Of a stretch of 64,000 nt of DNA, positions 10,348-62,357 are shown in pieces. Origin of the DNA: a virus. Its lineage: Duplodnaviria; Caudoviricetes. Numbering within the stretch: position 1 is the stretch's first letter; every line of letters begins with the position of its first letter. The stretch lies in the IMG/VR virus record IMGVR_UViG_3300017911_000967, positions 1 to 64,000 of that record; one strand, given 5' to 3'. The notes beneath the pieces are model-generated. The model worked only from the letters and a program-made list of their open reading frames with translations. It had not been told where the DNA came from and did not search any database. A program made the position numbers and the translations under genes.

Positions 10348-10368
10348 TCGTTTAGTAGTGTGATATAT

Positions 10369-10403
10369 AAAGACGGGATGGGAAACCTACCCGTCTTTTT
10401 TTT
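10369..10403 (+). terminator. Rho-independent terminator
   Basis: AAAGACGGG...CCCGTCTTT plus T run. Confidence 0.75.
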
Positions 10404-10413
10404 GGCGTAGGAA

Positions 10414-11094
10414 ATGTTACTAGTGAGATACAAAAAGTGTTACTTGACAGGATGTGACTCCAATACGGAGTGGCAGTTACCTTGGTTCCTTGAGAACTGG
10501 CAGCGGTACTCTGGTGTCCCTCTTCTGATCGCAGACTTCGGTATGTCGGAGGAGATGTTGAGTCACCTACACCAACACCCCACCTACATGAAACGGATGC
10601 AGGTCTTTTCATTTGACTCACCCGTCGAGGGATGGTTCAAGAAACCTCGTGCGATATGGGTAGCTACTAAGATGTCAACACGTGTCTGTTGGTTAGACAC
10701 CGACTGTCAGATCAACGGAAAGATCGACGACATCTGGGATCACTTCCAACCTAATGTTCTGAATATGGTCAAGGATCGCCCTTGGACTACACGCAGACCG
10801 GAAAACGGAGATTGGTTCAACTCAGGTGTAGTCATGACTGACCGCAATGAGGTACTACGTGCGTGGAAGGAAAAGACAGAGTCCGACCCCGATCAAGGGG
10901 ATCAAGAGGTGCTGCATTATATGCTCACTCCGATAGAAAAAGTAGGTAAGATAAACCCTCTCCCGCATAAATATAATACACTAAGGATCGACTATATAGA
11001 TAATATAGCAGTACCAGATCCTGTTGTAATCCATCACACGGGTCACAAGGGGAATGAAAAAATCAGACAGATGATGGGGAGTACATATGCTTAG
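10414..11094 (+). CDS. GT-A glycosyltransferase (nucleotide-diphospho-sugar transferase, GT8-like)
   Basis: WFKKP, CWLDTD, FNSGVV, GDQEVL, KYN, HHTG. Confidence 0.75.
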   Translation: MLLVRYKKCYLTGCDSNTEWQLPWFLENWQRYSGVPLLIADFGMSEEMLSHLHQHPTYMKRMQVFSFDSPVEGWFKKPRAIWVATKMSTRVCWLDTDCQINGKIDDIWDHFQPNVLNMVKDRPWTTRRPENGDWFNSGVVMTDRNEVLRAWKEKTESDPDQGDQEVLHYMLTPIEKVGKINPLPHKYNTLRIDYIDNIAVPDPVVIHHTGHKGNEKIRQMMGSTYA

Positions 11095-11551
11095 TGGAAT
11101 TTTAGGTTCGATATTGGGGTTCGGTAGTTCGATCGCGCCCGCCATCACCGACCACTTCAAGACGAAGAAGGCGATGGAGTTCGAACTCAAAAAGATGGAG
11201 AAGATGGCGGAACTGCGTAAGGCAGGTTACGACCATGAGATCCAGCAGTTCCGTGAGATGGGACTACATAAAGAACAACAGGCGTTGATTGAACACGACA
11301 TCGCCATCACGAAGGGAACAGGGTTTATCTCTGGTTTACAAAAGTCTGTGCGACCAGTGATCACCTACTGTTTCTTCGGTCTATTTGCAGCAATCGAATT
11401 CACGTTGATGCAAGAGGCGCTCGCTAATGGCATACCTATGTCAGAGGCACTAAACACATTATGGGACGATGATACAAAGGCAATCTTCGCTGCGATCATC
11501 TCATTTTGGTTCGGGTCACGAGCGGTCGAGAAGGCACGCTCTCAAATTTAA
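11087..11551 (+). CDS. 3TM holin-like protein
   Basis: SVRPVITY and FWFGSR motifs with hydrophobic segments. Confidence 0.65.
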   Translation: MLSGILGSILGFGSSIAPAITDHFKTKKAMEFELKKMEKMAELRKAGYDHEIQQFREMGLHKEQQALIEHDIAITKGTGFISGLQKSVRPVITYCFFGLFAAIEFTLMQEALANGIPMSEALNTLWDDDTKAIFAAIISFWFGSRAVEKARSQI

Positions 11552-11563
11552 CAAGGATATATT

Positions 11564-11782
11564 ATGAAAACCCTACGCAATCGTATGATTGATGCGACTA
11601 TCGATCATATGAAAGGTAAGATCGCCCTACACAAAGCAAACGTGGAGGTCTACTTACAAAATCCAGCGGGTATCGGTGAACATTCAGACGTAATGGAGGC
11701 TCTGGAACAAGAGTTGAAACAGGTCGCCGAGTATCAAGATATCTTGGAGGTTGCCTACACGATTGTTCCCGATTCGGAATAA
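11564..11782 (+). CDS. conserved T4-like hypothetical protein
   Basis: HKANVEVYL.NPAGIGEH.D motif. Confidence 0.65.
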   Translation: MKTLRNRMIDATIDHMKGKIALHKANVEVYLQNPAGIGEHSDVMEALEQELKQVAEYQDILEVAYTIVPDSE

Positions 11783-12136
11783 ATGTATGAGTATCGTGCG
11801 ACTATTCGCAGGTGGGTTGATGGTGATACTGTTGATCTTGATATCGATCTTGGGTTTGGTATCGTATACGCTAATCAAAGGGTTCGCCTCTTTGGTATCG
11901 ACGCGTTCGAGTCCAGAACAAGAAACCTGCAAGAAAAGCAAAAGGGTTTGGCCGCGAAAGACTATGTCGAACGTATGGCTCCCAACGGATCTCAAGTAAC
12001 CCTTAGATCGCACAAGGACGGCAAGGGCAAGTTTGGTCGCATACTAGGTGAGATCATTATAGACACGCCCAAGGGTCAACAAAATCTGAATACCTTACTC
12101 ACTATCGAAGGACACGCAGTCAGGTATGAATATTAA
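11783..12136 (+). CDS. thermonuclease (SNase-like)
   Basis: VDGDT, RVRLFGIDA.E, KFGRILG. Confidence 0.85.
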   Translation: MYEYRATIRRWVDGDTVDLDIDLGFGIVYANQRVRLFGIDAFESRTRNLQEKQKGLAAKDYVERMAPNGSQVTLRSHKDGKGKFGRILGEIIIDTPKGQQNLNTLLTIEGHAVRYEY

Positions 12137-12479
12137 AATAATTGGTACGGTAGTCTTGGCGGCTTTATTGGTTTCGTGTGAACCAAGTCAGTCACCACTC
12201 AACAAGACACACGATATCACGGGGGAATATGTCGACATTCGAGTTCAGACATTCTCATCACAACGTCAACTCAACAAGTATTTGAAACGAAAAGATGACG
12301 AACAGGTGGAAGGTCTCGCTCAATGGGTACATCCAAAAGGCGACCTAACTAAGGTCAAAAGGTGTGACATATATGTCGTAGAACCGAACGGTTCACGCGA
12401 CTATAGTGAGATGGAAACATGGGGTCACGAACTAATGCACTGCATTTATGGTTCGTATCATCCGGAAGGTCAGAGATGA
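12126..12479 (+). CDS. lipoprotein with HExxH zinc motif
   Basis: Signal peptide with LVSC lipobox-like site; WGHELMHC. Confidence 0.55.
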   Translation: MNIKIIGTVVLAALLVSCEPSQSPLNKTHDITGEYVDIRVQTFSSQRQLNKYLKRKDDEQVEGLAQWVHPKGDLTKVKRCDIYVVEPNGSRDYSEMETWGHELMHCIYGSYHPEGQR

Positions 12480-13126
12480 GCAGAAGAGTAAATATTTTAG
12501 GTAACGGGCCAGGCGCAGCGTTATTTTCGAAGAGAACGCCTGGAGAGACATTGGTATGTAATATGCCACCAGTGGATTTAAAACCTGAAAAGGTCTTTGC
12601 GTCATGTATGGTCGACTTCAAGATGATGAATGCCTTACAAGACGGTAAATGCAATCTGGACAAATACGATTGGATTCTAGGAACCCGTCCACGCCTTTGG
12701 GTAGAGAGAAACACCACGTTCTATCTGAAATATTCCCAAAACATCAAGGGGTTTCATACGCACATCCCTGCGTATGCACAACTCCCAGGCCATACAGTAG
12801 AAGAGGCAGCAACAAACTACTCTTGTGGTCACATGGCAACGGACTATGCTTGTCGTAAGATGAAGGCAACAGAAGTCCATATGTATGGGTTCGATGCAAT
12901 GTTTGATCTAGACTTATCAAGTTACAGTGACAACTTCTTGACCAGTGATAGGGGACTATCTAACAAACATCGAATGGCAGGGAACTGGCGACCAATCTGG
13001 TCTAAATTTTTCAGAGAGTTCGAGAAGGTCGAGTTCTATCTGTATCATACCCACACAGATATCAAACTCGCAACGGGACCGAACGTAACGTGCAAGGTGT
13101 TGAAAGCGAATGGAGAAGAAGGTTAA
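12476..13126 (+). CDS. hypothetical protein with Maf/DUF115 (sialyltransferase-like) Rossmann motifs
   Basis: ILGNGP, CN, SCGHMA, VHMYGFD. Confidence 0.45.
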   Translation: MSRRVNILGNGPGAALFSKRTPGETLVCNMPPVDLKPEKVFASCMVDFKMMNALQDGKCNLDKYDWILGTRPRLWVERNTTFYLKYSQNIKGFHTHIPAYAQLPGHTVEEAATNYSCGHMATDYACRKMKATEVHMYGFDAMFDLDLSSYSDNFLTSDRGLSNKHRMAGNWRPIWSKFFREFEKVEFYLYHTHTDIKLATGPNVTCKVLKANGEEG

Positions 13127-13241
13127 GTACGTCTTAGATTTTATCAAGTATACCGCAGTGGACTGTAAACACTGTTGGGAAGACTATCCTAATGTAATCA
13201 TATGGTGTGGTGTCGCTGGACTCATACTATATTTCATATAA
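13110..13241 (+). CDS. small membrane peptide (43 aa)
   Basis: Manual translation MEKKVKYVLDF...LILYFI. Confidence 0.4.
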   Translation: MEKKVKYVLDFIKYTAVDCKHCWEDYPNVIIWCGVAGLILYFI

Positions 13242-13272
13242 AAGAAAAGGGGACCGAAGTCCCCTTTTTTTT
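13241..13272. terminator. bidirectional terminator between convergent units
   Basis: A-tract, GGGGACCGAAGTCCCC, T-tract; the same 16-mer recurs at 23139-23154. Confidence 0.85.
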
Positions 13273-13296
13273 GGTTTTTTACTTGTCGGGTAAGTT

Positions 13297-14154
13297 TTAG
13301 AAGATTTTGACCATATCTTTCATGATCATCTCTTCCTCTGGGCGGCCGCCCTGAGATTGAACATCACCATCCCAAATAGATCTTACCGCAAATGCTTCCT
13401 CAACGCCTACTGAAGAGTCTTGCTCGTCGCCGTTGATCCAACGCTTAGGCGATGGAGCACCATACCAAATATCAATGATGTCGAAGTCCTCTGTACAGTA
13501 AGGCGCGAAAGTCTCACGTACTTGGTCTTCTTCAAATCCTGTTTCTGGATGTGCCATTGGTACACCCAAGAATACTACTGCGTCGAACTTCTCTGAAGTC
13601 GAACCGTTCATTTCCCATGAATCCATACCGTGTTGGTACTGAGCCGAACAAGGCATCATTTCTTCTGACAGACCCATCGATGGGTAAACTGCACCGTGCA
13701 TTGCACCTTGATTTGAAGGTGATGGTGGTGCCATGACTGTTATGCTTGCATCGTACTTTGCCCACTTCCACCACGATGGGATGAACTGTGCGACAATGTT
13801 CATGTCTGGGAATGTGTGCATACCAGTTCGTTCTGGTGGCATCACGTAGATCATACGACCAGCGTATTGATCTAGCATCCAGTGTGACTGAGATGCTTGG
13901 TGATGACCTACGAAAAGGATGTTTGAGTAACCGCGATTTGCGATCATGTTACAGAACATCGGTGCACGGTTTAGGCCCTCTTCTACTACGTTGACATCTT
14001 CATCTGCCCAACGTACATAGGTACCTTCTGACTGTGTCCACGACTTCATTGCGCCGTTGACATCACGTGCGACTTGTTCTTTCTCGCCGCCGAATACAGT
14101 CTGTTCTAACCCAGGCTTACGAACAATGGTTTCTAGTTTTGTGTTAAAAAACAT
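13297..14154 (-). CDS. hypothetical late protein (285 aa)
   Basis: Long ORF in a late-promoter operon. Confidence 0.7.
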   Translation of the reverse strand: MFFNTKLETIVRKPGLEQTVFGGEKEQVARDVNGAMKSWTQSEGTYVRWADEDVNVVEEGLNRAPMFCNMIANRGYSNILFVGHHQASQSHWMLDQYAGRMIYVMPPERTGMHTFPDMNIVAQFIPSWWKWAKYDASITVMAPPSPSNQGAMHGAVYPSMGLSEEMMPCSAQYQHGMDSWEMNGSTSEKFDAVVFLGVPMAHPETGFEEDQVRETFAPYCTEDFDIIDIWYGAPSPKRWINGDEQDSSVGVEEAFAVRSIWDGDVQSQGGRPEEEMIMKDMVKIF

Positions 14155-14157
14155 TGG

Positions 14158-14412
14158 TTAGTTTCCCTTGTAAATGTTTTGAATGTGTGTTTCAAATTTT
14201 TCGATCTTCTCAACGCGATCCGGCCATAGGATGTATTCCTTATCGGGAGACATCTTCAAGTTTGCTAGCAAGGGCTGTATCGCGTTGTAGAGTTGATCTA
14301 AGCGCGCTTGGTATTCATCGACTGAAGACTCGACAGACTCTAATCTCTGCGCAGATTCGAGTTCTGATTCGTCGACTAGGGTGAAACCAAAGTCAAAAAG
14401 TTCATTATCCAT
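14158..14412 (-). CDS. conserved T4-like hypothetical protein
   Basis: FDFGFT.VDE and P.K.YI.WP.R motifs. Confidence 0.7.
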   Translation of the reverse strand: MDNELFDFGFTLVDESELESAQRLESVESSVDEYQARLDQLYNAIQPLLANLKMSPDKEYILWPDRVEKIEKFETHIQNIYKGN

Positions 14413-14418
14413 ACGGTA

Positions 14419-14426
14419 TATTTATA
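14419..14426 (-). promoter_or_regulatory. late promoter
   Basis: TATTTATA on + equals TATAAATA on -. Confidence 0.7.
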
Positions 14427-14437
14427 CAAAAAAAGTG

Positions 14438-14466
14438 TTGACAGGTCGTATTTTAGGTGGTAAAAT
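14438..14466 (+). promoter_or_regulatory. sigma70-type early promoter
   Basis: TTGACA-N17-TAAAAT with upstream A-tract. Confidence 0.8.
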
Positions 14467-14502
14467 ATCTCTATCCAATGGGGAGAGTAGATACCAATAA
14501 TC

Positions 14503-15069
14503 ATGAACATATTTATACTGAACGAGAGTCCCGTGATCTCGGCACAAGAACAGTGCGACAAACACGTGGTAAAGATGATCGTCGAATCGGCGCAAATGTT
14601 GTCAACTGCACACCGAATGCTCGACGGTGAAGTATACCGCAGACCATCCAAGTCTGGCAAGACCATGATCAAATATTACGATCATCCGACACTAGACAAT
14701 GTCCTATACAAGGCTGTCCACCACGGACATCCTTGCACGGTCTGGACAATGGAATCCATATGCAACTACATCTGGCACTACCGACACTTCGTCGCGCTCT
14801 GTGATGAGTATATGTATCGCTACGGTAAACGTCACTTGACAGACACTCTGTTGCGTGATACACTACAAACTCCACCGGCAAATATACCCAAGGTGGAACG
14901 CACTCCGTTCAAACTCGCTATGGGTTCCAATCCGGAGTGTATGATGGATGATCCTGTAGAGTCGTATCGTGCGTTCTATCAGACCAAACAGGATCGGTTT
15001 ACAATGGTGTGGACTAACCGTCCAGTGCCGCAATGGTTCGAGGTAAAGAATGAAAGAACAAGTGCTTAA
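14503..15069 (+). CDS. pyrimidine-dimer DNA glycosylase/DenV-like family protein
   Basis: MNIF.L..., DKHVVKMIVESAQMLSTAH, HPCTVW, EY..RYGKRH. Confidence 0.7.
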   Translation: MNIFILNESPVISAQEQCDKHVVKMIVESAQMLSTAHRMLDGEVYRRPSKSGKTMIKYYDHPTLDNVLYKAVHHGHPCTVWTMESICNYIWHYRHFVALCDEYMYRYGKRHLTDTLLRDTLQTPPANIPKVERTPFKLAMGSNPECMMDDPVESYRAFYQTKQDRFTMVWTNRPVPQWFEVKNERTSA

Positions 15070-37578: not shown

Positions 37579-40500
37579 ATGTCAAGAAAAATCATTAATA
37601 CAGGAACGGGAGTTAACGACGGGTCGGGTGACACGCTTCGTACTGCCGGTGAAAAAATTAATGACAACTTCGCTGAGATCTATAGTCTTATAACAACCGA
37701 CAGCGGGATTACATTACAAGAGATAACTGACTTAATCAATTCGTCAGTCCAAACCTCTATTGATGATATTGATTTTAGTGAGATTGTTTCAAGTGTTGAT
37801 TTAATTGCAAACGTAGTTGCGCAACAAGGTCTTCACGATAATATCATTAATAGTTTAAACGCAGACGTACAAACCCTATTGGCTGGTGGTGGTGCAGTGG
37901 GACCACAAGGTCCTGTTGGTCCACAAGGTGGAGTTGGTCTTCAAGGTGGGGTTGGTCCTCAAGGTAGTCCAGGCGCACAGGGTTTCCAAGGTGTCCAAGG
38001 TAACCCAGGCGAGATGGGACCTCAAGGCGCCCAAGGTGCTCAAGGTTTTCAAGGTGTCCAAGGTAACGTTGGAGAAATGGGTCCACAGGGTGCACAAGGC
38101 GCTCAAGGTTTTCAGGGGGTCCAAGGTAACGTTGGTGAGATGGGACCACAAGGTGCACAGGGCGCTCAGGGTTTCCAAGGTGTTCAGGGCAACGTCGGTG
38201 AGATGGGACCGCAGGGCGCACAGGGTGCTCAAGGTTTTCAGGGGGTCCAAGGTAACGTCGGTGAGATGGGACCACAGGGTGCCCAAGGTGCGACTGGATT
38301 CCAAGGTGTGCAGGGCAACGTTGGAGAAATGGGTCCTCAAGGTGCACAGGGTGCAACCGGATTCCAAGGTGTTCAGGGCAACGTCGGTGAGATGGGTCCA
38401 CAAGGTGCACAAGGTCCTCAAGGTTTCCAAGGTGTTCAAGGTAATGTCGGTGAGATGGGTCCTCAAGGTGCCCAAGGTTCAACTGGTTTCCAAGGTGTTC
38501 AAGGTAACGTTGGTCCGTTAGGTCCTCAAGGTGCCCAAGGTTCAACTGGTTTCCAAGGTGTTCAAGGTAACGTTGGTCCGTTAGGTCCTCAAGGTGCACA
38601 AGGTCCTCAAGGTTTTCAAGGTGTTCAAGGTAACGTTGGTCCACTAGGTCCACAAGGATCTCAGGGCGCACAAGGTTTTCAGGGGACACAAGGCAATCCA
38701 GGCCCACTAGGTCCACAGGGATCTCAAGGTGCTCAGGGATTCCAAGGTCTTCAAGGTAACCCAGGCCCACTAGGTCCACAGGGATCTCAAGGTGCTCAGG
38801 GATTCCAAGGTCTTCAAGGTAACCCAGGCCCAAGAGGACCACAGGGACAACAAGGCGCAACAGGTAACAGAGGTGCGACGGGTAACGTTGGTGAAGTAGG
38901 ACCACAGGGTCCTCAAGGTTCTCAGGGTTTCCAAGGTGTCCAAGGTGAGGTCGGTGACAAAGGTCCACAGGGATCTCAGGGCGCACAAGGTTTCCAAGGT
39001 GTCCAAGGTGAGGTCGGTGACAAAGGTCCACAGGGATCTCAAGGTGCTCAAGGTTTTCAAGGTGTAACCGGAGAGGTTGGTGATAAAGGACCACAGGGTT
39101 CTACCGGACCGATGGGTTCACAAGGTGTAACTGGAGAGGTTGGTGATAAAGGACCACAGGGTTCCACTGGACCAACAGGTTTCCAAGGTATCACGGGTAA
39201 CCCAGGCCCACTAGGACCACAGGGCGCAACTGGTGCTACTGGTGAACGAGGATTGCAAGGCCAACCCGGCCCTGCGGGACCTCAAGGTGTAACTGGTGCT
39301 CAAGGTATTCAGGGACAGACCGGACCAGAAGGTCCAAGTGGTGCACCAGGCGATCCTGGCCCTCAAGGTCCAGCAGGAACTACTCCAGGCCCTCAAGGTC
39401 CAACGGGTAACACTGGAGAACCAGGCCCGCAAGGTCCAGCAGGAACTACGCCTGGCCCACAAGGACCTCAAGGTAATACGGGTGAACCTGGCCCACAAGG
39501 TCCACAGGGAAGACAAGGTGCAACTGGACCAGATGGTGTTCAGGGTGTTCAAGGTCCTCAAGGACAACAAGGTGTAACAGGATCTATTGGTGCGCAGGGT
39601 CCACAGGGACAACAGGGTCCTCAAGGTAGACAGGGCGCCACTGGTTTTGTTGGACCACAAGGTGCTATCGGAGATCAAGGTCCTCAAGGACGACAGGGTG
39701 CTACTGGTGTCGTTGGACCACAAGGCACTACTGGTGAAACGGGACCACAAGGTTTTCAAGGTTCTACGGGTCCAGTTGGTCCACAGGGTGTCACCGGAGA
39801 TCAAGGTCCGCAAGGTAGACAAGGCGCTACGGGTTCAGTCGGTCCACAAGGTGTTACCGGAGATCAAGGTCCTCAAGGACGACAGGGTGCTACGGGTCCA
39901 ATTGGACCACAAGGGGTTCAGGGACAACAGGGTCCTCAAGGCAGACAGGGTGCCACTGGTGTTCTAGGTCCACAGGGAACGCAAGGTCCCCAAGGACAAC
40001 AAGGTATTCAGGGACAGACAGGTAATGTTGGTCCACAAGGTGTTACCGGAGATCAGGGACCACAAGGTAGACAAGGCGCTACGGGTCCAGTCGGACCACA
40101 GGGGGTTCAAGGTCAACAAGGTCCGCAAGGTCGCCAAGGTGCGACAGGTAATGTGGGTCCGCAGGGTATCACTGGTGATCAAGGACCGCAGGGTCGCCAA
40201 GGCGCTACGGGTCCAGTCGGACCGCAAGGCATAACTGGTGACCAAGGTCCACAGGGAAGACAAGGCGCAACTGGTGTCGTTGGACCACAGGGTATCACTG
40301 GTGATCAAGGACCGCAGGGTCGCCAAGGCGCTACGGGTCCAGTCGGACCGCAAGGCATAACTGGTGACCAAGGTCCGCAGGGTCGTCAAGGTGCAACTGG
40401 TGTCGTTGGACCACAGGGTGTGACTGGTGATCAGGGTCCTCAAGGACGACAGGGTGCTACGGGTCCAGTCGGACCACAGGGGGTTCAAGGTCAACAAGGT

Positions 40501-41727
40501 CCACAGGGAAGACAAGGTGCAACTGGTGTCGTTGGACCACAAGGTGTGACTGGCGACCAAGGCCCACAAGGTAGACAAGGTGCGACAGGTAATGTTGGAC
40601 CACAGGGTGTCCAAGGACAACAGGGTCCACAGGGTCGCCAAGGTGCAACAGGTAATGTTGGACCACAAGGTGTTCAGGGACAACAGGGACCACAAGGCAG
40701 ACAAGGTGCAACAGGTAATGTTGGACCACAGGGCGTACAAGGACAACAAGGTCCTCAAGGAAGACAGGGGGCGACAGGTAATGTTGGTCCTCAAGGTGTT
40801 CAGGGACAACAGGGTCCACAGGGTCGCCAAGGTGCAACTGGTAATGTTGGTCCTCAAGGTGTCCAAGGTCAACAAGGACCACAAGGTAGACAAGGTGCAA
40901 CAGGTAATGTTGGACCACAAGGTGTCCAAGGTCAGCAAGGTCCTCAAGGAAGACAAGGTGCAACTGGTGTCACTGGTGCTCAAGGACAACAAGGTCAACA
41001 GGGTCCTCAAGGTAGACAGGGTGCCACTGGTGTCCAAGGTCAGCAGGGTCCACAAGGTAGACAGGGTGCCACTGGTGTCCAAGGTCAGCAGGGTCCACAA
41101 GGTAGACAGGGTGCCACTGGTGTCACTGGTGCACAAGGTGCTCAGGGACAACAGGGACCACAGGGTCGTCAAGGTGCAACTGGTGTCACTGGTGCTCAAG
41201 GTGCACAAGGTGCTCAGGGACAACAGGGACCACAGGGTCGTCAAGGTGCCACTGGACCAGATGGTGCGCAGGGACAACAGGGTCCTAGAGGTCGCCAAGG
41301 TAATCAAGGTCAACCAGGCCCAGACGGTCCTCAAGGTGCAACAGGTGTTGCGGGTGTAACTGGTCAACAGGGTCCAGTCGGTGGATTCGGTAACGCAGTA
41401 TTATTCAATACATCGACTTCGTTCCCATCGAATGTAAACGCAACAGCCTCCAGTGGAATTAAATCTTTCCGCACAGTTGATAAGATCTTTATCGGTGACG
41501 TTTGGTGGCACATCAATACGGGTCGAGTATTCAGATCAACATCAAATGTGACTGGGTCAGGAAACGCTAACTTCACAGAGTTGACTAACAACCAAGGATT
41601 TGTTGATATGAGTGGTCTCCTAAATACAGGGACATCACCTAATGAACGAATTGAGTTTTCGTCAACGTCTATAGACATTTATGATAACAGCAATAGTTTG
41701 AGGGTGAAGATCGGTAAGTTGAACTAA
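37579..41727 (+). CDS. giant collagen-like fibre protein with gp9/gp10-type N-terminal anchor motif
   Basis: IINTG...NDG.GDTLR.AG.KIN.NF.EIY; about 390 Gly-X-Y triplets; C-terminal LRVKIGKL. Confidence 0.88.
37891..41397 (+). repeat. Gly-X-Y collagen repeat, 63-nt (7-triplet) superperiod
   Basis: [21 protein letters not shown] and [21 protein letters not shown] units. Confidence 0.92.
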
Positions 41728-53144: not shown

Positions 53145-53512
53145 TGTCTTACGGAATAGAAGTCTACAATTCAGAAGGCACAAAGATTGTAAGTCCTAAT
53201 AGTAGTTTAGGGACCATTATTGCATATGGAAGGGTTCCGGCCGATCGATCGAGATATGAGGCAATTCTTGAGGGAAACCCAAATGCGGGTAATATAATGA
53301 ATGGAAATGCGGTATACATATGGGGTGAGTTGGTAGATATCCCAGTTTTTGTCCCTAACTTTATAAACGATTCTTTACATGAAATAATCATCGTTTGTCC
53401 CTCTAACATCATTGTTGGAAATGGTTCAATTGTAAGTAAATCAAATGGAAGTTTTGTTCTTAGAAGAAATGATAAATTCGATGCGGCTTGGTATGTAGTG
53501 AGGCGAGGATGA
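53144..53512 (+). CDS. tail-tip accessory protein
   Basis: MSYGIEVYNSEG N-terminus. Confidence 0.55.
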   Translation: MSYGIEVYNSEGTKIVSPNSSLGTIIAYGRVPADRSRYEAILEGNPNAGNIMNGNAVYIWGELVDIPVFVPNFINDSLHEIIIVCPSNIIVGNGSIVSKSNGSFVLRRNDKFDAAWYVVRRG

Positions 53513-54945
53513 GTTACGGAATTGAAATAAGAAATTCTGACGGTAATATTATTATCGAAGATGGTTTTAAAAACTTTCAAGTAGTTGCCTTCGGCACTAC
53601 CAGTGCTGGTTCGGTTATACCATATGGAAATAATTTTTTGACCGGAGGACTCATTTTCGGTAAACCTTCTGGTGTAAACCAAAATGATTTTTATGGATGG
53701 CATATTGCAGGAAATAGTACTACTGGAAATTTTGTCGGCGTCGGTCGTGGATCTGTAAACCTAGTTGATCCAGTTCAAGAAAGACCTAACCCATTTAGTG
53801 GAAATACAACTACTTATGATTATACAACAACTCCTATAACTCTACCTAATGTTGGTAAGATGGCACCCAGTGTAGATTGGGTATATGTGGAACCTTCGGC
53901 AACTTCACCCAATCCATCTGATTATGGATTAGAGGTTTATGCGGCCGACGGAACCGTATCGTACACTAGTACAGTAGAAAGCGAGTTTGATCTAACCTCC
54001 GTTGTAACTATTACTAACTTCGATCCACCATATTACGGACAGGATGATTTTCACGCTACTGGATTCTTCAGCGCAAGTGACTCAGCATTTAATTATTATA
54101 TGTGTCTAAGTAATCTTGTTTCGTTTCCTGTTACTACAATTCCTGGCCAGTATGGATGGGTGAATTCTGGAAGATGGACGGCTGGTGGAATAACATTTTA
54201 CCAACCAACATGGAATATTGCGAACTTCACTAGTGTAGGACAACAAATTCTTATAGGTAAATATGTAGGAACTTCTTCTGGCGCTGAATCTGGCGGAAAC
54301 GAAACAGAGACACCGAATCTTGCGCCAACTTATATTTCTGGGGTTGCATCCTCTTATACATTAAATACTAATGGTACCACAATCACTCCGATTTTCAGTG
54401 ATCCTGAAGGTGGTCAAATAACCATTACTTTTTACACTTCTGGAACTTTAGGTGGAGCATCAATTGAACTAATCAATAATGGAACACAGATTAGAATAGT
54501 TCCAGGCGATAACGATGCAAGTTTTTCTCTAACTATAGTTGGAAGTGATGGGACTCAAGGAACATCAAGGGTTGCAGCAATTAACTATACCGTACCGGCG
54601 TCATCAAACAATCCGCCAGTGATTGCTACAAACAGTGTAAGCAGTTCTTACTCATTGCAGGGAACTTCTGCAACAACAACCATATCACCTCTTGTTATAG
54701 AACCAGATGGTGACTCTTATACTCTAAGCGCTTCTGTCACGGGAAGTAGTACAGGAATGTCTGTGACTGTGAATCAAAATAATACTATTACTGTATCATG
54801 GAATGGTGCTATGGTCGGTCTGTCATTCACACTAAATATAACCGCAGTGGATCAAAACGGTGCGGTTAGCAGTCCAGTATCTACAATTATAATTTGGGAG
54901 TCGGGTGGAGGTTTTCCTCCCATAGATCCAGGCGGATTGTTCTAA
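53509..54945 (+). CDS. tail-tip/receptor-binding protein with two C-terminal Ig/cadherin-like domains
   Basis: MSYGIEIRNSDG and YGLEVYAADG; two N.AP/PP...DPEG/EPDG...LTI...D..G units. Confidence 0.6.
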   Translation: MSYGIEIRNSDGNIIIEDGFKNFQVVAFGTTSAGSVIPYGNNFLTGGLIFGKPSGVNQNDFYGWHIAGNSTTGNFVGVGRGSVNLVDPVQERPNPFSGNTTTYDYTTTPITLPNVGKMAPSVDWVYVEPSATSPNPSDYGLEVYAADGTVSYTSTVESEFDLTSVVTITNFDPPYYGQDDFHATGFFSASDSAFNYYMCLSNLVSFPVTTIPGQYGWVNSGRWTAGGITFYQPTWNIANFTSVGQQILIGKYVGTSSGAESGGNETETPNLAPTYISGVASSYTLNTNGTTITPIFSDPEGGQITITFYTSGTLGGASIELINNGTQIRIVPGDNDASFSLTIVGSDGTQGTSRVAAINYTVPASSNNPPVIATNSVSSSYSLQGTSATTTISPLVIEPDGDSYTLSASVTGSSTGMSVTVNQNNTITVSWNGAMVGLSFTLNITAVDQNGAVSSPVSTIIIWESGGGFPPIDPGGLF

Positions 54946-54979: not shown

Positions 54980-55432
54980 ATGAAAATTTTGGCATATGTA
55001 GATCAAGGAACAGGACAGATAGTCTCAGTATCTAGCGTCTCAGTTAGTGCCCCTAGTCATGAAGATGGAAATATAGTAGATGGTTTCCTTGTTAAAGATA
55101 TTAGTTTCGCAGGAACTTCTTGGCAAACTTTCGGAAAAGATCATTGGTGGGACGGTGGAGAATGGGTAGAAAGGGGCGAACAACCAACCCAATATCATTC
55201 ATGGTTAAATGGTGAGTGGGTGTTTGTTCAATCTTCATTTGAAACCTCAGTAAGAAACATTAGAGATCAACTACTTCAACAGTCGGACTGGACTCAGATT
55301 CCAGACGCCCCACTATCGACAGATATGAAGAACGCATGGGCGGGATACCGTCAAGAGTTGCGTGATATTACTTCAAACTTAGAAGGTTTGACTAGTTTAG
55401 AAGACGTAAACTGGCCAGAACCACCACAGTAA
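54980..55432 (+). CDS. tail fibre assembly chaperone
   Basis: VRNIRDQLLQQSDWTQIPDAPL...W..YRQELRDI...WPEPP. Confidence 0.85.
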   Translation: MKILAYVDQGTGQIVSVSSVSVSAPSHEDGNIVDGFLVKDISFAGTSWQTFGKDHWWDGGEWVERGEQPTQYHSWLNGEWVFVQSSFETSVRNIRDQLLQQSDWTQIPDAPLSTDMKNAWAGYRQELRDITSNLEGLTSLEDVNWPEPPQ

Positions 55433-55551: not shown

Positions 55552-58500
55552 GTGTCAGCATCTAGTATACCACTAAAAATTCAAAATGCTAATGGTGACC
55601 TACAAGAATTCACTCCATCGGACGAATTATTTCTTTCGTATGCAGTGGGACAAGCATTAGTTGCGGCCGCATCTAATGACGTTGGTAATATCAGTTTGAC
55701 TGAAGGCCAATCAATCGGTTCATTTGTAGATTCTTACTACAATGAAATATCTGGCACCCACCCTGCTTCACAGATCACGGGTGCCTCAGTGACCACCACT
55801 CTGAAGCAAGTGAGTGGCCCAGCAGATGAATCCGGTGCAGACTTTGTCCGTCCAGTAGGTTATTACGACGTTGATCCAAACCCAGGCTTCTACGAAATGG
55901 TAGACGGGGACTTGGACAACCTAGCAGGTCGTGTTCTGTCTAACTTAGTACAGAACGACTATATCGGTACTTTCAAACTGTCCGCTACCCAACCAAGTGC
56001 AGACTATACAAAGTTCATTGACTCTGTATTCTCCGACACTCACGGTAATGGTGCAGGTGGTACCGTAGTAACAAACTACCACATTTGGATGCGTACTTCT
56101 ATGACGGCGGTTGCTCCAGTTCGTCCAGTAGCGACAAGCTACGACGGTTCTGGTTTCAACGGTCTACGTGAAATGACAGATGCCCAGATCCAGTACACAC
56201 TAGGTCAACGCATCAAGTCACTTCGTGCTACTTCCGGAGCGATTGGTTCATACCAACTACGTTCAACAGCACAGGGCGCACCAACAGTCCCAGGCACATG
56301 GGTGTCTGTAGGCACTGCACAGAACACACGTCGTACACCAGTTGACGTTGCATACGCAAGAACTCGCGTATCTTCATACAACCGTGCACGTGTTTCTGCA
56401 TACACTCGTACTCGTACATCTTCATATACGCGTAACAGTGTCAGTACATTTACTCGCACATTCGTAGGAAACTACGTCGGTGCATATTCACGTGACTTTG
56501 TAGGCAACTACTCACGTGACTTTGTTGGGAACTACTCACGTACTCGCCCATCATCGTACTCAGGTACATACGCACGTACTCGCGTATCATCGTATTCACG
56601 TACTCGCCTAACTGCGTTTACTGGATACTTCGCGGGAACTTACTCACGTGCTCGTGTTTCGGTTTACACTCGTAACCGCGTCACACCATTCACTGGTACA
56701 TTCTCACGTAACCGTACTTCATCGTACACTCGTGGCCGTGTATCATCTTACGTAGGCACTTACGCTCGCACACGTGTATCTTCATACTCAGCAGATTACA
56801 CACGTAACCGTGTATCAACATATTCAGGAACTTATGCGGGAACATACTCCCGTCTACGTGTTTCTGCGTATGCTGGAACATACACGCGCAACCGTGTTTC
56901 TTCTTATGCTGGAACATACACACGCACACGCGTATCTGCATATGCGACAGACTTTACCCGCGTCCGTGAACAGAACTTCGCAGGGACTTACACTGGTTAC
57001 TATACTGGCGTATTCTCTCGTGCTCGTGTATCAACTTATACGCGTAACCGTGTAACAGGTTTCGCAGGTAACTTCATCGGAAACTACTCTCGCAACTTCC
57101 AAGGTAACTATTCACGTAACTTCGTGGGTAACTACTCTCGTGGATTTGCTGGTAACTTCGTAGGTAACTACTCTCGCGTATCAACACGTACATCAACTCG
57201 CACACGTTACAGTGCTTACGCTCGTACACGCATCACTAACTACGTTGGTGACTTTGCTCGTGATCGCGTCACTAACTTTGCGGGTAACTTCGTAGGAAAC
57301 TACGCTCGCACCTTCGTAGGTAACTACGGTGGTAACTATATCGGAAACTACGCTCGTGACTTCGTTGGAAACTACGTTGGTAACTACGCTCGTGCATATG
57401 TAGGTAACTACTCTCGCGGATTCGTAGGTAACTACGGTCGTAACTTCCTTGGAAACTTTGTCGGCAACTACAGCCGCAACTTCCTTGGTGACTTCGTCGG
57501 AAACTACGCTCGTGGTTTCGTCGGCGACTTCGTTGGAAATTTCGTAGGTAACTATGCACGTACTTCAACTCGTACATCTACTCGTACTCGTTACAGTGCA
57601 TACGCTCGTACTCGTGCGACAAACTATACAAGAACTCGTGGTTCTTCTTACGCTCGTACTCGTGTCACTAACTACGTTGGTAACTTCACGCGCACATCTA
57701 CTCGTAGCAGACCATCTACGTTCTCTTACGCACGTACTCTATACTACGCAGGTGACTTCGTAGGTAACTATGGTCGTACTCGCGTAACAAACTACACTCG
57801 TGCTTCAGCGGTAGGTGTAACCTATACAGGTAACTACACACGTAACCTATACTACGTCGGTAACTATGCCCGTGCATTCGCAGGAGATTTCGTAGGTAAC
57901 TATGCTCGTAACCGTGCGTTCTCATACGTAGGTAACTACGCTCGTAACCGTGCGTTCTCATACGCAGGTAACTACTCACGTACTCGTGTAACAAACTTTG
58001 CAGGGAACTTCGTAGGCAACTACGCTCGTAACTTTGTGGGTAATTATAGTCGACAAGCGGGATTCTCTCGTAACTATGCTGGTAACTATTCTCGTAACTT
58101 TACTCGGGCCCGTTCGTTCTCATTCGCAGGTAACTACACACGTACTGTTACATCAACTCGAACTTCTACTGGTACCACATGGGTCAATTTGCCAAACGGA
58201 TCGACAGGCCCTACCAGCGCTGGCCATACTTACATTTACTATAATGAAGATAGAGATCGATGGATCGGTAAGATAAATGGTCAGTGGTTATACTCGAACT
58301 ATTCCGGAAATAGATTCTACTACTTTGGTTCGACGCCAGGAGCTATCGGAACAACGTTCTCGACAGTAGCTTATAACGGGTCTCCGGCCGGATTCTGGCG
58401 AGTAGGTGTTTCCTATTATGATACGAACGATGATAGAGATTATCACTATATTCAGCAACAAAGCACGAATTCCTACACCGGAAACTTTGTAGGTAACTTA

Positions 58501-60360
58501 ACATACACGCGCACCCGTGCTGGTACCTATACTGGTAACTACTCTCGCGCATATGTACGTTGGCGCAGTCAACAATATACACGTACTCAGAACTATTCAA
58601 GAACTCGAGCTGCGGCTTACACACGTGATCGAGTCACTAACTTCGCAGGTAACTTCGGTGGTACGTATACGCGTACTCGTGCTGGTAACTACACTGGTAA
58701 CTACGCACGTACTCGTGCTGGTAACTACACTGGTAACTACGCTCGCACGTCAACACGTACACGTTACTCTGCATACGCAAGAACTCGCGTTGCGACAGGT
58801 ACTTACACGCGTAACCGCGCTGCGACACTATACTACACTGGTGACTTTGTAGGTAACTTCGCAGGTGCATACACACGCACATCAACACGTACATCTACTA
58901 GGCCTGGTTACTACACACGTACACTAACTTACGCAGGTAACTACGTAGGTAACTATACGACAACGTTCACTGGCGACTTCGTCGGTAACTATGCGCGTAA
59001 CTTTGTGGGTGACTATGTTGGTAACTTCGTAGGTAACTATGCGCGTGGATTTGCTGGTAACTTTGCTGGTAACTTTGTAGGTGAATATGCACGTACTCGT
59101 GTAACGAACTACACTCGTACTCGTAACTCTGCGTACACACGTAACCGCACACAGAACTTTGCGAACTCTTACGCTCGCACACGTGAAACAAACTTCACTG
59201 GTTACTACACACGCAACCGTGCATCCGCATACGCTCGTACTCGTTACAGCGCATACGCTCGCACACGTGTAACTAACTACGTAGGTGACTTCACACGCGA
59301 TTCAACCCGCACATCTACTCGTAACCGTGTTCCGACATACACTCGTGATCGTGTAACTAACTTCGCTGGTAACTTCGTAGGAAACTACGCAACAACGTTT
59401 ACCGGAGACTTCGTTGGTAACTACGCACGTGGATTTGCTGGTGAATATGCTGGTAACTTTACTGGTAACTATGCTCGTACTTCAACGCGCACTCGTTACT
59501 CTGCATACGCACGTACTCGTGTATCTGCATACGTCCGCAACCGTGGATCATCATACACCCGTGACCGTGTAACTAACTTTGCTGGTGACTTCGTAGGTAA
59601 CTACGCTCGCACCTTCTCTGGTCAGTACACACGTCAGTTCGTTGGTGAGTATGTTGGTGATTACGTAGGAACGTTCGCAGGTAACTACGTTGGTAACTTC
59701 ACTCGTGGATTCGGTGGAAACTACGTCGGTAACTATGCACGTGGATTTGCTGGTAACTACGTAGGAAACTATAACCGTAGTTTCTTAGGTGAGTACACTG
59801 GTGCTTACTCTGGTACTTACTCTCGTGGATTTGCGGGTAACTATGTAGGTAACTACAACCGTGGGTTCGTTGGTGAGTACACTGGCGCTTACAACCGTAC
59901 ATTCACAGGTAACTACTCTCGTGACTTCTCCGGTCAGTACACACGCGACTTTGCTGGTGACTTCGTAGGTAACTACAGTCGTCAGTTCGCAGGTGAGTAC
60001 ACTGGTGCTTATGCGCGTGACTTCGTAGGTAACTTCGTGGGTAACTACAACCGTGGTTTCGTTGGTGAGTACACTGGTGCTTACTCTCGTGACTTCGTAG
60101 GTAACTACTCTCGTGTCCGTGTATCTGCATACGCACGTATCAGAACGTCTTCTTACTCAGGAGCATACACACGTGACCGTGTTTCTTCTTACGTAGGTGA
60201 CTTTACTGGTAACTATACTCGTAACTTTGGTGGTAACTACACCCGTGACTTTGCTGGAAACTACGCACGTAGCTTCGTCGGTAACTACATCGGTGCAACC
60301 ATCTCTGATACACAGACCCACGTTACTGATACATATACATTATATGTAAGGGTTGCATAA
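55552..60360 (+). CDS. 1602-aa tetrapeptide-repeat protein, predicted fold-back fibre with central tip domain
   Basis: N-terminal domain (~aa 1-267), repeat arm 1 (~268-873), non-repetitive aromatic-rich domain (~874-973), repeat arm 2 (~974-1582); late promoter. Confidence 0.85.
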   Translation: MSASSIPLKIQNANGDLQEFTPSDELFLSYAVGQALVAAASNDVGNISLTEGQSIGSFVDSYYNEISGTHPASQITGASVTTTLKQVSGPADESGADFVRPVGYYDVDPNPGFYEMVDGDLDNLAGRVLSNLVQNDYIGTFKLSATQPSADYTKFIDSVFSDTHGNGAGGTVVTNYHIWMRTSMTAVAPVRPVATSYDGSGFNGLREMTDAQIQYTLGQRIKSLRATSGAIGSYQLRSTAQGAPTVPGTWVSVGTAQNTRRTPVDVAYARTRVSSYNRARVSAYTRTRTSSYTRNSVSTFTRTFVGNYVGAYSRDFVGNYSRDFVGNYSRTRPSSYSGTYARTRVSSYSRTRLTAFTGYFAGTYSRARVSVYTRNRVTPFTGTFSRNRTSSYTRGRVSSYVGTYARTRVSSYSADYTRNRVSTYSGTYAGTYSRLRVSAYAGTYTRNRVSSYAGTYTRTRVSAYATDFTRVREQNFAGTYTGYYTGVFSRARVSTYTRNRVTGFAGNFIGNYSRNFQGNYSRNFVGNYSRGFAGNFVGNYSRVSTRTSTRTRYSAYARTRITNYVGDFARDRVTNFAGNFVGNYARTFVGNYGGNYIGNYARDFVGNYVGNYARAYVGNYSRGFVGNYGRNFLGNFVGNYSRNFLGDFVGNYARGFVGDFVGNFVGNYARTSTRTSTRTRYSAYARTRATNYTRTRGSSYARTRVTNYVGNFTRTSTRSRPSTFSYARTLYYAGDFVGNYGRTRVTNYTRASAVGVTYTGNYTRNLYYVGNYARAFAGDFVGNYARNRAFSYVGNYARNRAFSYAGNYSRTRVTNFAGNFVGNYARNFVGNYSRQAGFSRNYAGNYSRNFTRARSFSFAGNYTRTVTSTRTSTGTTWVNLPNGSTGPTSAGHTYIYYNEDRDRWIGKINGQWLYSNYSGNRFYYFGSTPGAIGTTFSTVAYNGSPAGFWRVGVSYYDTNDDRDYHYIQQQSTNSYTGNFVGNLTYTRTRAGTYTGNYSRAYVRWRSQQYTRTQNYSRTRAAAYTRDRVTNFAGNFGGTYTRTRAGNYTGNYARTRAGNYTGNYARTSTRTRYSAYARTRVATGTYTRNRAATLYYTGDFVGNFAGAYTRTSTRTSTRPGYYTRTLTYAGNYVGNYTTTFTGDFVGNYARNFVGDYVGNFVGNYARGFAGNFAGNFVGEYARTRVTNYTRTRNSAYTRNRTQNFANSYARTRETNFTGYYTRNRASAYARTRYSAYARTRVTNYVGDFTRDSTRTSTRNRVPTYTRDRVTNFAGNFVGNYATTFTGDFVGNYARGFAGEYAGNFTGNYARTSTRTRYSAYARTRVSAYVRNRGSSYTRDRVTNFAGDFVGNYARTFSGQYTRQFVGEYVGDYVGTFAGNYVGNFTRGFGGNYVGNYARGFAGNYVGNYNRSFLGEYTGAYSGTYSRGFAGNYVGNYNRGFVGEYTGAYNRTFTGNYSRDFSGQYTRDFAGDFVGNYSRQFAGEYTGAYARDFVGNFVGNYNRGFVGEYTGAYSRDFVGNYSRVRVSAYARIRTSSYSGAYTRDRVSSYVGDFTGNYTRNFGGNYTRDFAGNYARSFVGNYIGATISDTQTHVTDTYTLYVRVA
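56353..60297 (+). repeat. 12-nt (tetrapeptide) periodic repeat region: YxRx / Rxxx / (F,Y)xGx
   Basis: Units such as YART, RVSS, FVGN; interrupted at about 58171-58470. Confidence 0.9.
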
Positions 60361-60467: not shown

Positions 60468-60929
60468 ATGAGTTATAGACGTTGGATGGACAACGCTTTT
60501 TGGGAAACAGAAGAGAAGAAAGAACTAAACTGTATCCTAGAAATGGAAGATGATGTGGGTCGTGTCACCCGTCAACAGATGTTGTTGGCAAGACATGATC
60601 GTGATGGAAATCCTAACGAGTTGTTTGCGGAAGTCGTGGACGCACTTGGTGAAGAGTTGATCGATAAGGAAACTACCGATCGAGTCGAACGCAAAGCTGC
60701 GGAGGCGGAAGAAGAGAAACAACGTGAGTTAGAACATCAAAAGGCAAGGAAGCTTGAGAAACTGTTCAACTACAAACTAGAAGCGTTTGAGGTTGAAGAG
60801 ATCAAGAACTCTAAGAACCGCAAGTTGAAGGCAAAATTGCGTCGTGCAAAATCAAAGATTGAAGTAGATATGTACTCAATCATGATTCTACAAGACCAAC
60901 TAGAGGCCGAGACAGATGGAAAAGAGTAA
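60468..60929 (+). CDS. hypothetical charged helical protein (possible fibre chaperone)
   Basis: GGAG RBS; LE.LF..KLEAFE..EIKNS motif. Confidence 0.65.
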   Translation: MSYRRWMDNAFWETEEKKELNCILEMEDDVGRVTRQQMLLARHDRDGNPNELFAEVVDALGEELIDKETTDRVERKAAEAEEEKQRELEHQKARKLEKLFNYKLEAFEVEEIKNSKNRKLKAKLRRAKSKIEVDMYSIMILQDQLEAETDGKE

Positions 60930-61653
60930 AGGGTTTATTATCGTTGCGTCAAAGAAGCGCAACTTTTATTTGTACGCAATCAATCTTGCAGAGTCTCTCA
61001 GGGACTACTATGAACCAGAAGAGGAATGCAAGATCTGTTTGGTGACTGAGGAACGATTCCTTGATGACCGTGGTCGAGATGTCGCAGACGATATTCTCTT
61101 ATGTGACGATCACTACCGCGCTAAGTTATGGGGTATGGCGAAATCGCCGTATGACCTAACGATGTATATCGATGCTGATATGGAAGTAGAACACGAAGAC
61201 ATCTGTAAAGTTTGGGATGAAATGAAGGACCATGATGTGGTCTTTACTGCTTTGACAGATGATCGTGACTACATATATGCAGAACGTGACTTTGACACTC
61301 CAGAGGGTGTTTCTAAGTTCACACTATGCGGTGCAGTATGTTTATATGATATGTCCAAACCGATTGTGCGTGAATTCATGAATGATTGGTGGGACTTGAC
61401 ATTCAGACAGATGAATGACACTTGGTGGCCAGACGGGTATGCGGACAGTCTCAAATCTTGGGACCAGTTCTCACTCTGGTGGTTGACTGAGAAAGAAGAA
61501 AAGTATAAGGATCTCAAAGTTGGAATCTTTGATGACGACTTGAGATGGAACTACTACAACGCACTTAATTGGGCAATAACAAAACCAGAAACAGGGCCAG
61601 TGATTATCCGTCACTTCTCTGCTGGTCTTAATAAGGATACACCAATCGTATGA
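60916..61653 (+). CDS. GT-A glycosyltransferase-like protein
   Basis: RAKLWGM..SPYD.TMYIDAD, WDQF.LWW, RWN, IRH. Confidence 0.7.
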   Translation: MEKSKGFIIVASKKRNFYLYAINLAESLRDYYEPEEECKICLVTEERFLDDRGRDVADDILLCDDHYRAKLWGMAKSPYDLTMYIDADMEVEHEDICKVWDEMKDHDVVFTALTDDRDYIYAERDFDTPEGVSKFTLCGAVCLYDMSKPIVREFMNDWWDLTFRQMNDTWWPDGYADSLKSWDQFSLWWLTEKEEKYKDLKVGIFDDDLRWNYYNALNWAITKPETGPVIIRHFSAGLNKDTPIV

Positions 61654-62357
61654 CACAGTTAAACGACCAATATCTAAAGCACGTCGAAGTTAAGAACCCT
61701 GAGTTGCTTGCGATTCTGGACAACTACGCTGGACTACCGAAGATTCCTGGCTTTGCAGAGAACTGTCACTGCACTTCTCAGGAACGTATTCGTCAGCGTA
61801 ACTGGTACGTTGGACCAAAGTACATGCAAGAGATTGTAGATGAGGGAACGCAACACGAAGGTTTCCCAGATGAGATGGTAGGTTATAACTTTAAACTATC
61901 AGATCGCGCTCACCAGATGTTCGAGTCAGATGCAGATCCAATCTTCAAGCGTGACATGACGCACATGTTGTCAGATTTAAACGACAAGATGATGAACTTC
62001 CTGTCAGTCAAGCACAATGCGCTTGCAGCGGTATACCCGCCAGGCGGTTTCATTGCATGGCACAACAACGCTAACGCGCCAGGATTCAATCTAATCTTCT
62101 CTTACTCAGAGAGTGGTTCAGGTTGGTTCGACTACATCCATCCGGAAACTAAAGAAGTTATCCGTTGTCAAGACAAGCCAGGTCAGTGGACTTGCAAGGC
62201 AGCATACTTCGGACACTACGGAGAAGAAGAGAAACTAATGTATCACGCTGCATCTTCAGAAGATGATTGGCGCGTAACAGTTTCTTACGTCTTCGACTGG
62301 TCTGAGACTTCAGAAGAATTCCGTGAGATGGTCTTAGAAGACATCGCTTCAGAATAA
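61650..62357 (+). CDS. 2OG-Fe(II) oxygenase-like (double-stranded beta-helix) protein
   Basis: YPPGGFIAWHNN...YHAA...WRVTVSY. Confidence 0.65.
   Translation: MTQLNDQYLKHVEVKNPELLAILDNYAGLPKIPGFAENCHCTSQERIRQRNWYVGPKYMQEIVDEGTQHEGFPDEMVGYNFKLSDRAHQMFESDADPIFKRDMTHMLSDLNDKMMNFLSVKHNALAAVYPPGGFIAWHNNANAPGFNLIFSYSESGSGWFDYIHPETKEVIRCQDKPGQWTCKAAYFGHYGEEEKLMYHAASSEDDWRVTVSYVFDWSETSEEFREMVLEDIASE

Follow-up and report, generated by a model that had tools for sequence, protein, structure and literature searches.

Mirror-complementary repeat arms in a marine cyanophage protein suggest a fold-back fibre

Here, we describe a protein of 1602 amino acids (aa) with two long repeat arms that are mirror complements of each other, encoded by a T4-like marine cyanophage in a 64,000-nucleotide (nt) stretch of DNA (positions 1 to 64,000 of the IMG/VR virus record IMGVR_UViG_3300017911_000967), hereafter the window. 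The gene is a single open reading frame (ORF) with a GTG start at 55552..60360 on the plus strand, the strand of all its parts discussed below, and sits in the baseplate/fibre module. The complementarity of the arms is conserved among homologues, and the lengths of the two arms change in a coupled manner. Judged on sequence evidence, the protein is probably a virion fibre in which a single chain folds back on itself, the arms running antiparallel, with an exchangeable tip at the distal end. The original prediction for this gene had proposed such a fold-back, an interpretation supported here by the anti-diagonal signal between the arms, the coupled arm lengths, the compensated insertions, and a swap of arm polarity in one relative.

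Tetrad code and mirror complementarity of the arms

From residue ~268 to residue 1582, the spacing from one aromatic residue to the next is almost always 4 or 8. A dynamic-programming parse assigned this region to tetrads of three main classes, denoted Y ([YF]-x-R-x, 100 tetrads), G ([YF]-x-G-x, 121 tetrads) and R (R-x-[ST]-x, 64 tetrads), along with the minor class S-T-R-T. Positions 1 and 3 of the tetrads are occupied by aromatic residues, arginine or glycine, and positions 2 and 4 by small or polar residues. The tetrads make up arm 1 (56353..58170, aa 268-873; 151 tetrads, R-rich near the base) and arm 2 (58471..60297, aa 974-1582; 150 tetrads, G-rich near the base), separated by a central non-repeat domain of ~100 aa (58171..58470, aa 874-973), which is the least conserved part of the protein and presumably the distal receptor-binding module. 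This layout agrees with the original prediction in the three tetrad classes, the boundaries of both arms, and the unique centre. The arms contain 171 arginines, with a net charge of about +132, and no lysine, histidine or cysteine.

Complementarity was scored as the correlation between arm 1 at residue i and arm 2 at residue K-i, with R tetrads set to +1 and G tetrads to -1. Over all 606 residues, the correlation reached -0.58 at K=1850 precisely and was about -0.3 at K±2; at ~600 other anti-diagonal and ~600 parallel offsets, all values fell within -0.29 to +0.25. At K=1850, tetrads face tetrads throughout, and the 55 R tetrads that are in register (31 of the 34 in arm 1 and 24 of the 27 in arm 2) are all opposite G tetrads, with no R:R and no R:Y pairs. 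Other in-phase offsets yield 17-32 R:G pairs, along with 12-36 R:Y pairs and up to 4 R:R pairs. When arm 2 was shuffled in blocks of 1-16 tetrads, 20,000 times per block size, the number of R:G pairs averaged ~23 and peaked at 46, with 0 of 20,000 shuffles reaching 55; the maxima for circular shifts and for the parallel orientation were 35 and 34, respectively. The anti-diagonal signal is far above these shuffled and shifted controls, and the predicted complementation of arm 1 by reversed arm 2 is borne out. The block alignment by which the rule had originally been illustrated was complementary but displaced by one tetrad from the best register (to about K=1846); with K set to 1850, YSRV is placed against YART and STRT against FTGN, and the complementarity is cleaner than in that example. 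Among single-residue pairs, the most informative are 99 Arg-Tyr and 56 Arg-Gly at i+j=K-1, and 52 Tyr-Tyr, 75 Arg-Gly and 46 Arg-Phe at i+j=K-3.

Irregularities of the repeat are mirrored as well, with six 2-residue register shifts at mirror-related sites. The tip-proximal zone of arm 1 (57685..58155) contains 2-residue register shifts that divide the arm into phase segments 0/2/0/2/0/2, with boundaries near residues 712-726, 726-732, 748-758, 762-768 and 832-838. The phase segments of arm 2, where the shifts lie at 58486..58932, coincide with those of arm 1 once mirrored, as had been anticipated for the two-residue breaks. After a compensated excursion in the tip-proximal zone of arm 1, the mirror-complement alignment is back at K=1850.

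No DNA inverted repeat accompanies the pattern, in keeping with the original prediction: reverse complementarity at the matching offset is 0.30-0.36, and other in-phase offsets reach 0.38. This background level rules out a DNA inverted-repeat or antisense origin of the mirror pattern. Direct repeats do exist within and between the arms, with a best same-class parallel score of 73 at offset 767.

Coupled arms, variable centre and conserved ends among homologues

With the N-terminal domain as the query, 33 loci on viral contigs were identified, yielding 20 distinct complete proteins of 1163-2282 aa. Addition of the homologue from the nearest phage record, Phage C48C1 (Kyanoviridae, OQ984149), extends the length range to 3347 aa. 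The starts of the homologues coincide with that of the window protein (M/V-S-A-S-S-I-P-L-K), and all complete homologues end in ..TYTLYVR... In every homologue, the best-scoring anti-diagonal begins at the first tetrad (about aa 270) and extends to the final one (about L-24, L being the protein length); in most of them, it is single and ungapped. Across the 20 homologues and the C48C1 protein, the alignments contain 40-95 R:G pairs, no R:R pairs, and at most two R:Y pairs.

The lengths of both arms co-vary across relatives, from 394 to 1025 aa, while staying on one anti-diagonal. The arms are 394 aa long in the homologue L028, about 550-660 aa in most homologues, more than 840 aa in L016 (in one ungapped alignment), and 1025 aa in C48C1. 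In L016, a unit of ~88 aa is multiplied in both arms, each copy being complementary to its partner. In the C48C1 protein, five globular inserts of 123-315 aa each interrupt arm 2 only, and arm 1 (residues 271-1295) is tiled gap-free by the arm 2 repeat segments, which total ~1015 aa; such tiling is partly the default outcome of this kind of alignment, but the agreement of both ends and of the total lengths is not forced. In the protein encoded by the C48C1 gene (L001, OQ984149 8001-18041), some 75 aa are duplicated exactly in tandem where a large globular insert adjoins arm 2 (residues ~1813-2127), either a genuine duplication or an artefact of assembly.

Short insertions are likewise compensated. 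Three homologues (L002, L003 and L009, ~87% identical to the window protein) carry an additional 28 aa, R-rich, at window-protein residue 674 and another 28 aa, G-rich, at residue 1168, whereas L014 has neither insertion. Residue 674 has its mirror at 1176; the position assigned to an insertion inside a tandem repeat can vary by a few residues. In the coordinates of the window, the site of the 84-nt (28-aa, 7-tetrad) tandem duplication in arm 1 is 57569..57652, and its mirror, the site of the 84-nt tandem duplication in arm 2, is 58984..59067. The former duplication is present in contigs of all four public marine runs, from four studies, and the latter is bridged by one run (X5). These are two separate duplications, one per arm, at mirror sites. 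Co-varying arm lengths and compensated insertions of this kind are the behaviour by which the original prediction had proposed to check itself on homologues.

The rule extends to distant relatives. In P0004, whose N-domain is 41% identical, the polarity is swapped, with a G-rich arm 1 and an R-rich arm 2, and complementarity is kept; the more distant members P0015, P0060, P0079 and P0098 obey the rule at the expected K-L of 238-268. P0079 additionally contains a non-tetrad motif, A-G-A-Q-G-T-G-S-S-I-V-A-G-E-G, twice per arm (residues ~493-510 and ~549-566 and their mirror sites), with the copies facing each other antiparallel; these mirrored motifs may form bulges or knobs that pair up along the shaft. 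Two minimal members of ~420 aa, P0114 and P0047, have arms of only ~70 aa built from different tetrad vocabularies. P0114 alternates N-F-x-G with V-R-[ND]-V in arm 1 and with P-Q-P-Q in arm 2, a systematic difference that is expected if arm 1 pairs with arm 2 and not with itself.

Conservation along the protein is V-shaped, at 0.75-0.87 at both ends, with identity falling to 0.10 at aa 901-950, and is mirror-symmetric (r=0.85, vs -0.32 for the parallel control). The tip differs among homologues whose N-domains are 95% identical. Likewise, in related contigs from four runs, both arms are covered and 58128-58449 is the sole uncovered part, in all four. Searches with the tip domain found no relative among viral contigs and no usable match in the ESM Atlas. 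Such a variable, cassette-like centre is the behaviour expected of a distal receptor-binding cassette. Each member has a turn or a non-repeat domain at its centre. The L028 turn, NPNMGE, comprises six residues, is rich in Asn, Pro and Gly, and is reached by the mirror alignment exactly at K/2. AlphaFold2 (AF2) places a beta hairpin at the centre of L028 in both models computed, with a predicted local distance difference test (pLDDT) score of 37-60 and a strand sum of about 1409, that is, K-3.

The ends of the protein are its conserved parts. The N-terminal base domain (55552..56352, aa 1-267), presumably the site of virion attachment, comprises three tandem strand-strand-helix-strand-strand(-strand) repeats and is shared by 325 representative clusters as a conserved element. 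The AF2 model of L028 gives this domain a pLDDT of 55-82 and a three-fold repeated secondary-structure pattern. Comparison of repeat 2 with repeat 3 gave z=4.5, rising to z=5.3 with the C-terminal tail appended, and the tail alone matched the last strand of repeat 2 weakly (z=1.9). The tail (60298..60357, aa 1583-1602), which ends in ..TYTLYVRVA, presumably returns to and completes the base; its possible insertion into the base domain is, on these comparisons, a lead only. The tail motif was found in 92 of the 150 best representatives (404-2654 aa), and these 92 have both the N-domain and the tail, with an intervening length that varies from about 140 to 2400 aa. Joint conservation of the two ends fits a tail that returns to the base.

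The whole fibre protein matched no Pfam and no PHROG family, and a PDB sequence search returned no chain at E<=1. The N-domain had no match in Pfam, PHROG or PDB and, in the ESM Atlas, hit unnamed viral clusters only, with scores <0.9. No Pfam families were found in the C48C1 protein, including its five arm 2 inserts, or in two divergent members.

The fold-back reading and its alternatives

Tandem duplication does not produce a mirror order with class complementation, and the DNA does not contain one. Taken together with the coupled indels and the polarity swap, the mirror order requires selection on a physical antiparallel contact between arm 1 and arm 2 at i+j≈K. Contact within one chain is favoured because of the turn in L028, the central domain or turn in all members, the V-shaped conservation, and the replacement of the tip. 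In the mechanism that we propose, the chain would leave the conserved base domain and run outward as arm 1, turn at the variable central tip (in one relative, L028, at a tight turn alone), and return as arm 2, which would run antiparallel to arm 1 with the two exactly in register. The C-terminal tail would thereby be placed beside the base domain, and both termini would be attached at the virion. Register would follow a tetrad rule: a tetrad without a leading aromatic (R-x-x-x or S-T-R-T) must oppose aromatic-x-Gly-x, and aromatic-x-Arg-x tetrads oppose one another or Gly tetrads. Aromatic residues, arginine and glycine would then share one face and form an alternating Arg/aromatic ladder, in which the extra arginine is given room over glycine.

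Extended beta strands are suggested for the arms by the period-2 pattern within tetrads and by their composition (Tyr, Phe, Val, Thr, Arg, Gly). In such a conformation, at about 0.33 nm per residue, the fibre would be ~200 nm long; the shortest member of the clade would measure 130 nm and the C48C1 protein about 340 nm. It could be a single hairpin or several bundled hairpins, and its tip would bind the host. The neighbouring baseplate, fibre and chaperone genes, the conserved ends, and the fast-changing centre are those of tail fibres in general.

Several observations weigh against this reading. The homologue L020 (locus 10001-14953), one of six near-identical metagenomic records, lacks 24 aa that L018 has within a tandem repeat of arm 2; arm 1 shows no matching change, and a single substitution is the only other difference. 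Formally, this is the one-armed indel that argues against paired arms; the deletion reflects either a collapse in the assembly or a bulge that the fibre tolerates. In most of the 325 family clusters, the tetrads come from other vocabularies (F-E-T-T/F-V-G-T and V-R-N-V/P-Q-P-Q, for example), for which the R/G test has no power, and in divergent members, neither an aromatic-only anti-diagonal count nor an ungapped mutual-information scan discriminated. Structure prediction did not recover the arms: the AF2 model of full-length L028 (1163 aa, 17-sequence alignment) has a mean pLDDT of 33, and a model of residues 620-792 (173 aa, single sequence) also has a mean of 33, with only the central hairpin at 50-60; the arms score ~24 in both. 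Part of arm 2 in the full-length model was drawn as short solenoid-like strands with pLDDT <40, which matched leucine-rich repeat (LRR) proteins at Z 4-5, and a fold search (VIA wide) with this model gave only LRR-like matches, Z 3.5-5.3, to this low-scoring region; strands at such pLDDT are weightless either way. Foldseek found nothing in PDB at E<=0.001 for the same model. Furthermore, the presence of the protein in the virion and receptor binding by its tip are points that we infer, and an isolated two-stranded ribbon carrying a charge of about +132 would not obviously be stable without partners or modification.

The last of these points bears on the first alternative, in which the arms are paired and the hairpin is supercoiled or bundled, for instance as three hairpins in a six-stranded needle or as a coiled ribbon, giving a shorter and thicker rod. 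The high charge of the arms argues for extra packing or partners, any supercoiling would preserve i+j=K, and phage fibres are usually trimers. The closest known precedent is the tip needle of the T4 long tail fibre, gp37 (PDB 2XGF), an interwoven trimer that runs out to a receptor-binding head and back in antiparallel segments, with tens of residues per strand and Fe ions on HxH motifs. The window protein appears to share with gp37 the out-and-back topology only, with the distal end in mid-sequence; as far as sequence covariation can indicate it, this topology is suggested by the mirror complementarity, the coupled indels, the turn in L028, and the variable centre. The defining features of the gp37 needle are missing, as there is neither an HxH motif nor any histidine in the arms; moreover, there is no homology and no sequence or fold match, and the arms are ten times longer (394-1025 residues) and follow a period-4 aromatic/Arg/Gly code. 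The three internal repeats of the base domain could also let a single chain fill a three-fold site. On balance, we regard a bundled or supercoiled form as unlikely.

Slightly harder to credit is antiparallel pairing between chains, head to tail, which would build a two-ended rod with bases at both ends and the centres at mid-rod. A two-fold antiparallel homo-oligomer would account equally well for the i+j=K signal, the coupled indels and the symmetric conservation; the arguments against it lie at the centre of symmetry. In L028, this centre is an Asn/Pro/Gly turn, and AF2 pairs its flanking strands locally; all members carry a central non-repeat domain or turn; and the centre is the fastest-changing, cassette-like part, as would be expected of a distal receptor-binding end. 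Two attachment ends would also have no obvious use on a baseplate. This arrangement, therefore, appears improbable.

Least plausible by far is a parallel beta-helix, solenoid or other fold without arm-arm contact, with the mirror pattern arising incidentally from the evolution of the repeats or from DNA or RNA structure, a reading to which the low-pLDDT arm 2 strands with their weak LRR matches and the direct repeats lend something, against a mirror order that tandem duplication is unable to yield, DNA without reverse complementarity at the matching offset, a parallel maximum of 34 R:G pairs compared with 55, and coupled indels and a polarity swap that require selection on arm-arm contact.

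The fold-back fibre can be set against other known architectures. The classical shafts (the triple beta-helix of T4 gp5 and gp12, the adenovirus triple beta-spiral, coiled-coil fibritin, and collagen-like fibres) are parallel three-chain repeats in which variability rises toward the C-terminus. The window protein resembles these in its long repetitive shaft and in its genomic module, which includes a collagen-like gene, but differs in its antiparallel self-complementarity, its period of 4, its conserved N- and C-termini, and its variable centre. A collagen-like or coiled-coil fibre was rejected on the aromatic spacing of 4 or 8 throughout, as opposed to Gly-X-Y triplets or heptads; a parallel beta-helix or beta-solenoid fibre or tailspike was rejected on the uniqueness of the anti-diagonal signal, far above the parallel controls.

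A further formal likeness is to nucleic-acid hairpins and RNA stems, which also have an antiparallel complementary register with indels compensated on the other strand. Among proteins, designed or natural two-stranded beta ribbons are represented by single-layer sheets, such as OspA, and by beta-hairpin peptides. The window protein differs from all of these in its three or four tetrad classes, its one-sided rule, and its span of hundreds of residues. The C48C1 protein (WJE88074.1, listed only as a hypothetical protein) is a true homologue that shares the N-domain, the tail, the tetrad code and the gene order, and differs in its size (3347 aa), its arms of about 1025 aa, and its five inserts in arm 2 only.

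A limited literature search found no description of this family, of the C48C1 protein or of such a pairing rule, and within that search the proposed fold-back tetrad fibre is of a kind not described before. The new family is defined by a base domain, paired tetrad arms and a ..TYTLYVR.. tail, and the window protein possesses the base domain and the tail. If the arms pair as indicated, this would be a new design for a long fibre, in which one gene sets the length through two matched repeat arrays and the register through a readable residue code, and which would explain how cyanophages vary fibre length and receptor tips. Fibre length would be predicted to scale with arm length, from 394 to 1025 residues across relatives, and at least 325 sequence clusters, at present without annotation, would be united in one family. 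The arms would also offer a naturally occurring code for antiparallel pairing, in which hundreds of positions covary in a "base-pair-like" manner, useful for studies of beta-sheet register, for testing structure predictors, which fail here, and for the design of programmable protein ribbons. More tentatively, and with somewhat less confidence than would tip the balance in its favour, we envisage a natural "protein duplex": one chain that zips its halves together over 400-1000 residues by a tetrad pairing code into a nanometre-thin fibre of 130-340 nm, with paired tandem duplications setting its length and tip and side domains swapped as cassettes.

Genomic setting

Upstream of the fibre gene, the window encodes a gp48-like tube cap, gp6-like and gp8-like wedge proteins, and a collagen-like fibre; further genes upstream are those for a 1081-aa tail-fibre protein and a tail-fibre assembly chaperone. 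The gene order matches that of Phage C48C1. The collagen-like fibre gene (37579-41727, 1382 aa) lies between the gp7-like and gp8-like baseplate genes, in a stretch that is locally GC-rich (0.52-0.56 vs ~0.45 elsewhere). The chaperone gene (54980-55432; PF16778, E=1.5e-16) is immediately upstream of the fibre gene. Judging by its position, the chaperone probably serves the preceding 485-aa ORF (53488-54945), and it could also act on the hairpin fibre.

Directly 3' of the fibre gene, at 60468-62357, are three overlapping ORFs of 153, 245 and 235 aa, with weak, sub-threshold Pfam matches (Aminopep, E=1e-3; Glycos_transf_2, E=6e-3). C48C1 carries a 153-aa ORF at the equivalent place after its own fibre gene. 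These three ORFs may be a maturation or modification cassette for the Arg/Tyr/Ser/Thr-rich fibre.

Near-identical DNA of 55552-60360 is present in seawater and coral-reef metagenomes from several studies. Contigs from marine metatranscriptomes span both arms, which is not proof of transcription. Elsewhere in the window, at 5103-6620, an auxiliary metabolic gene encodes a Nol-like carbamoyltransferase (phrog_1601, E=3e-74).

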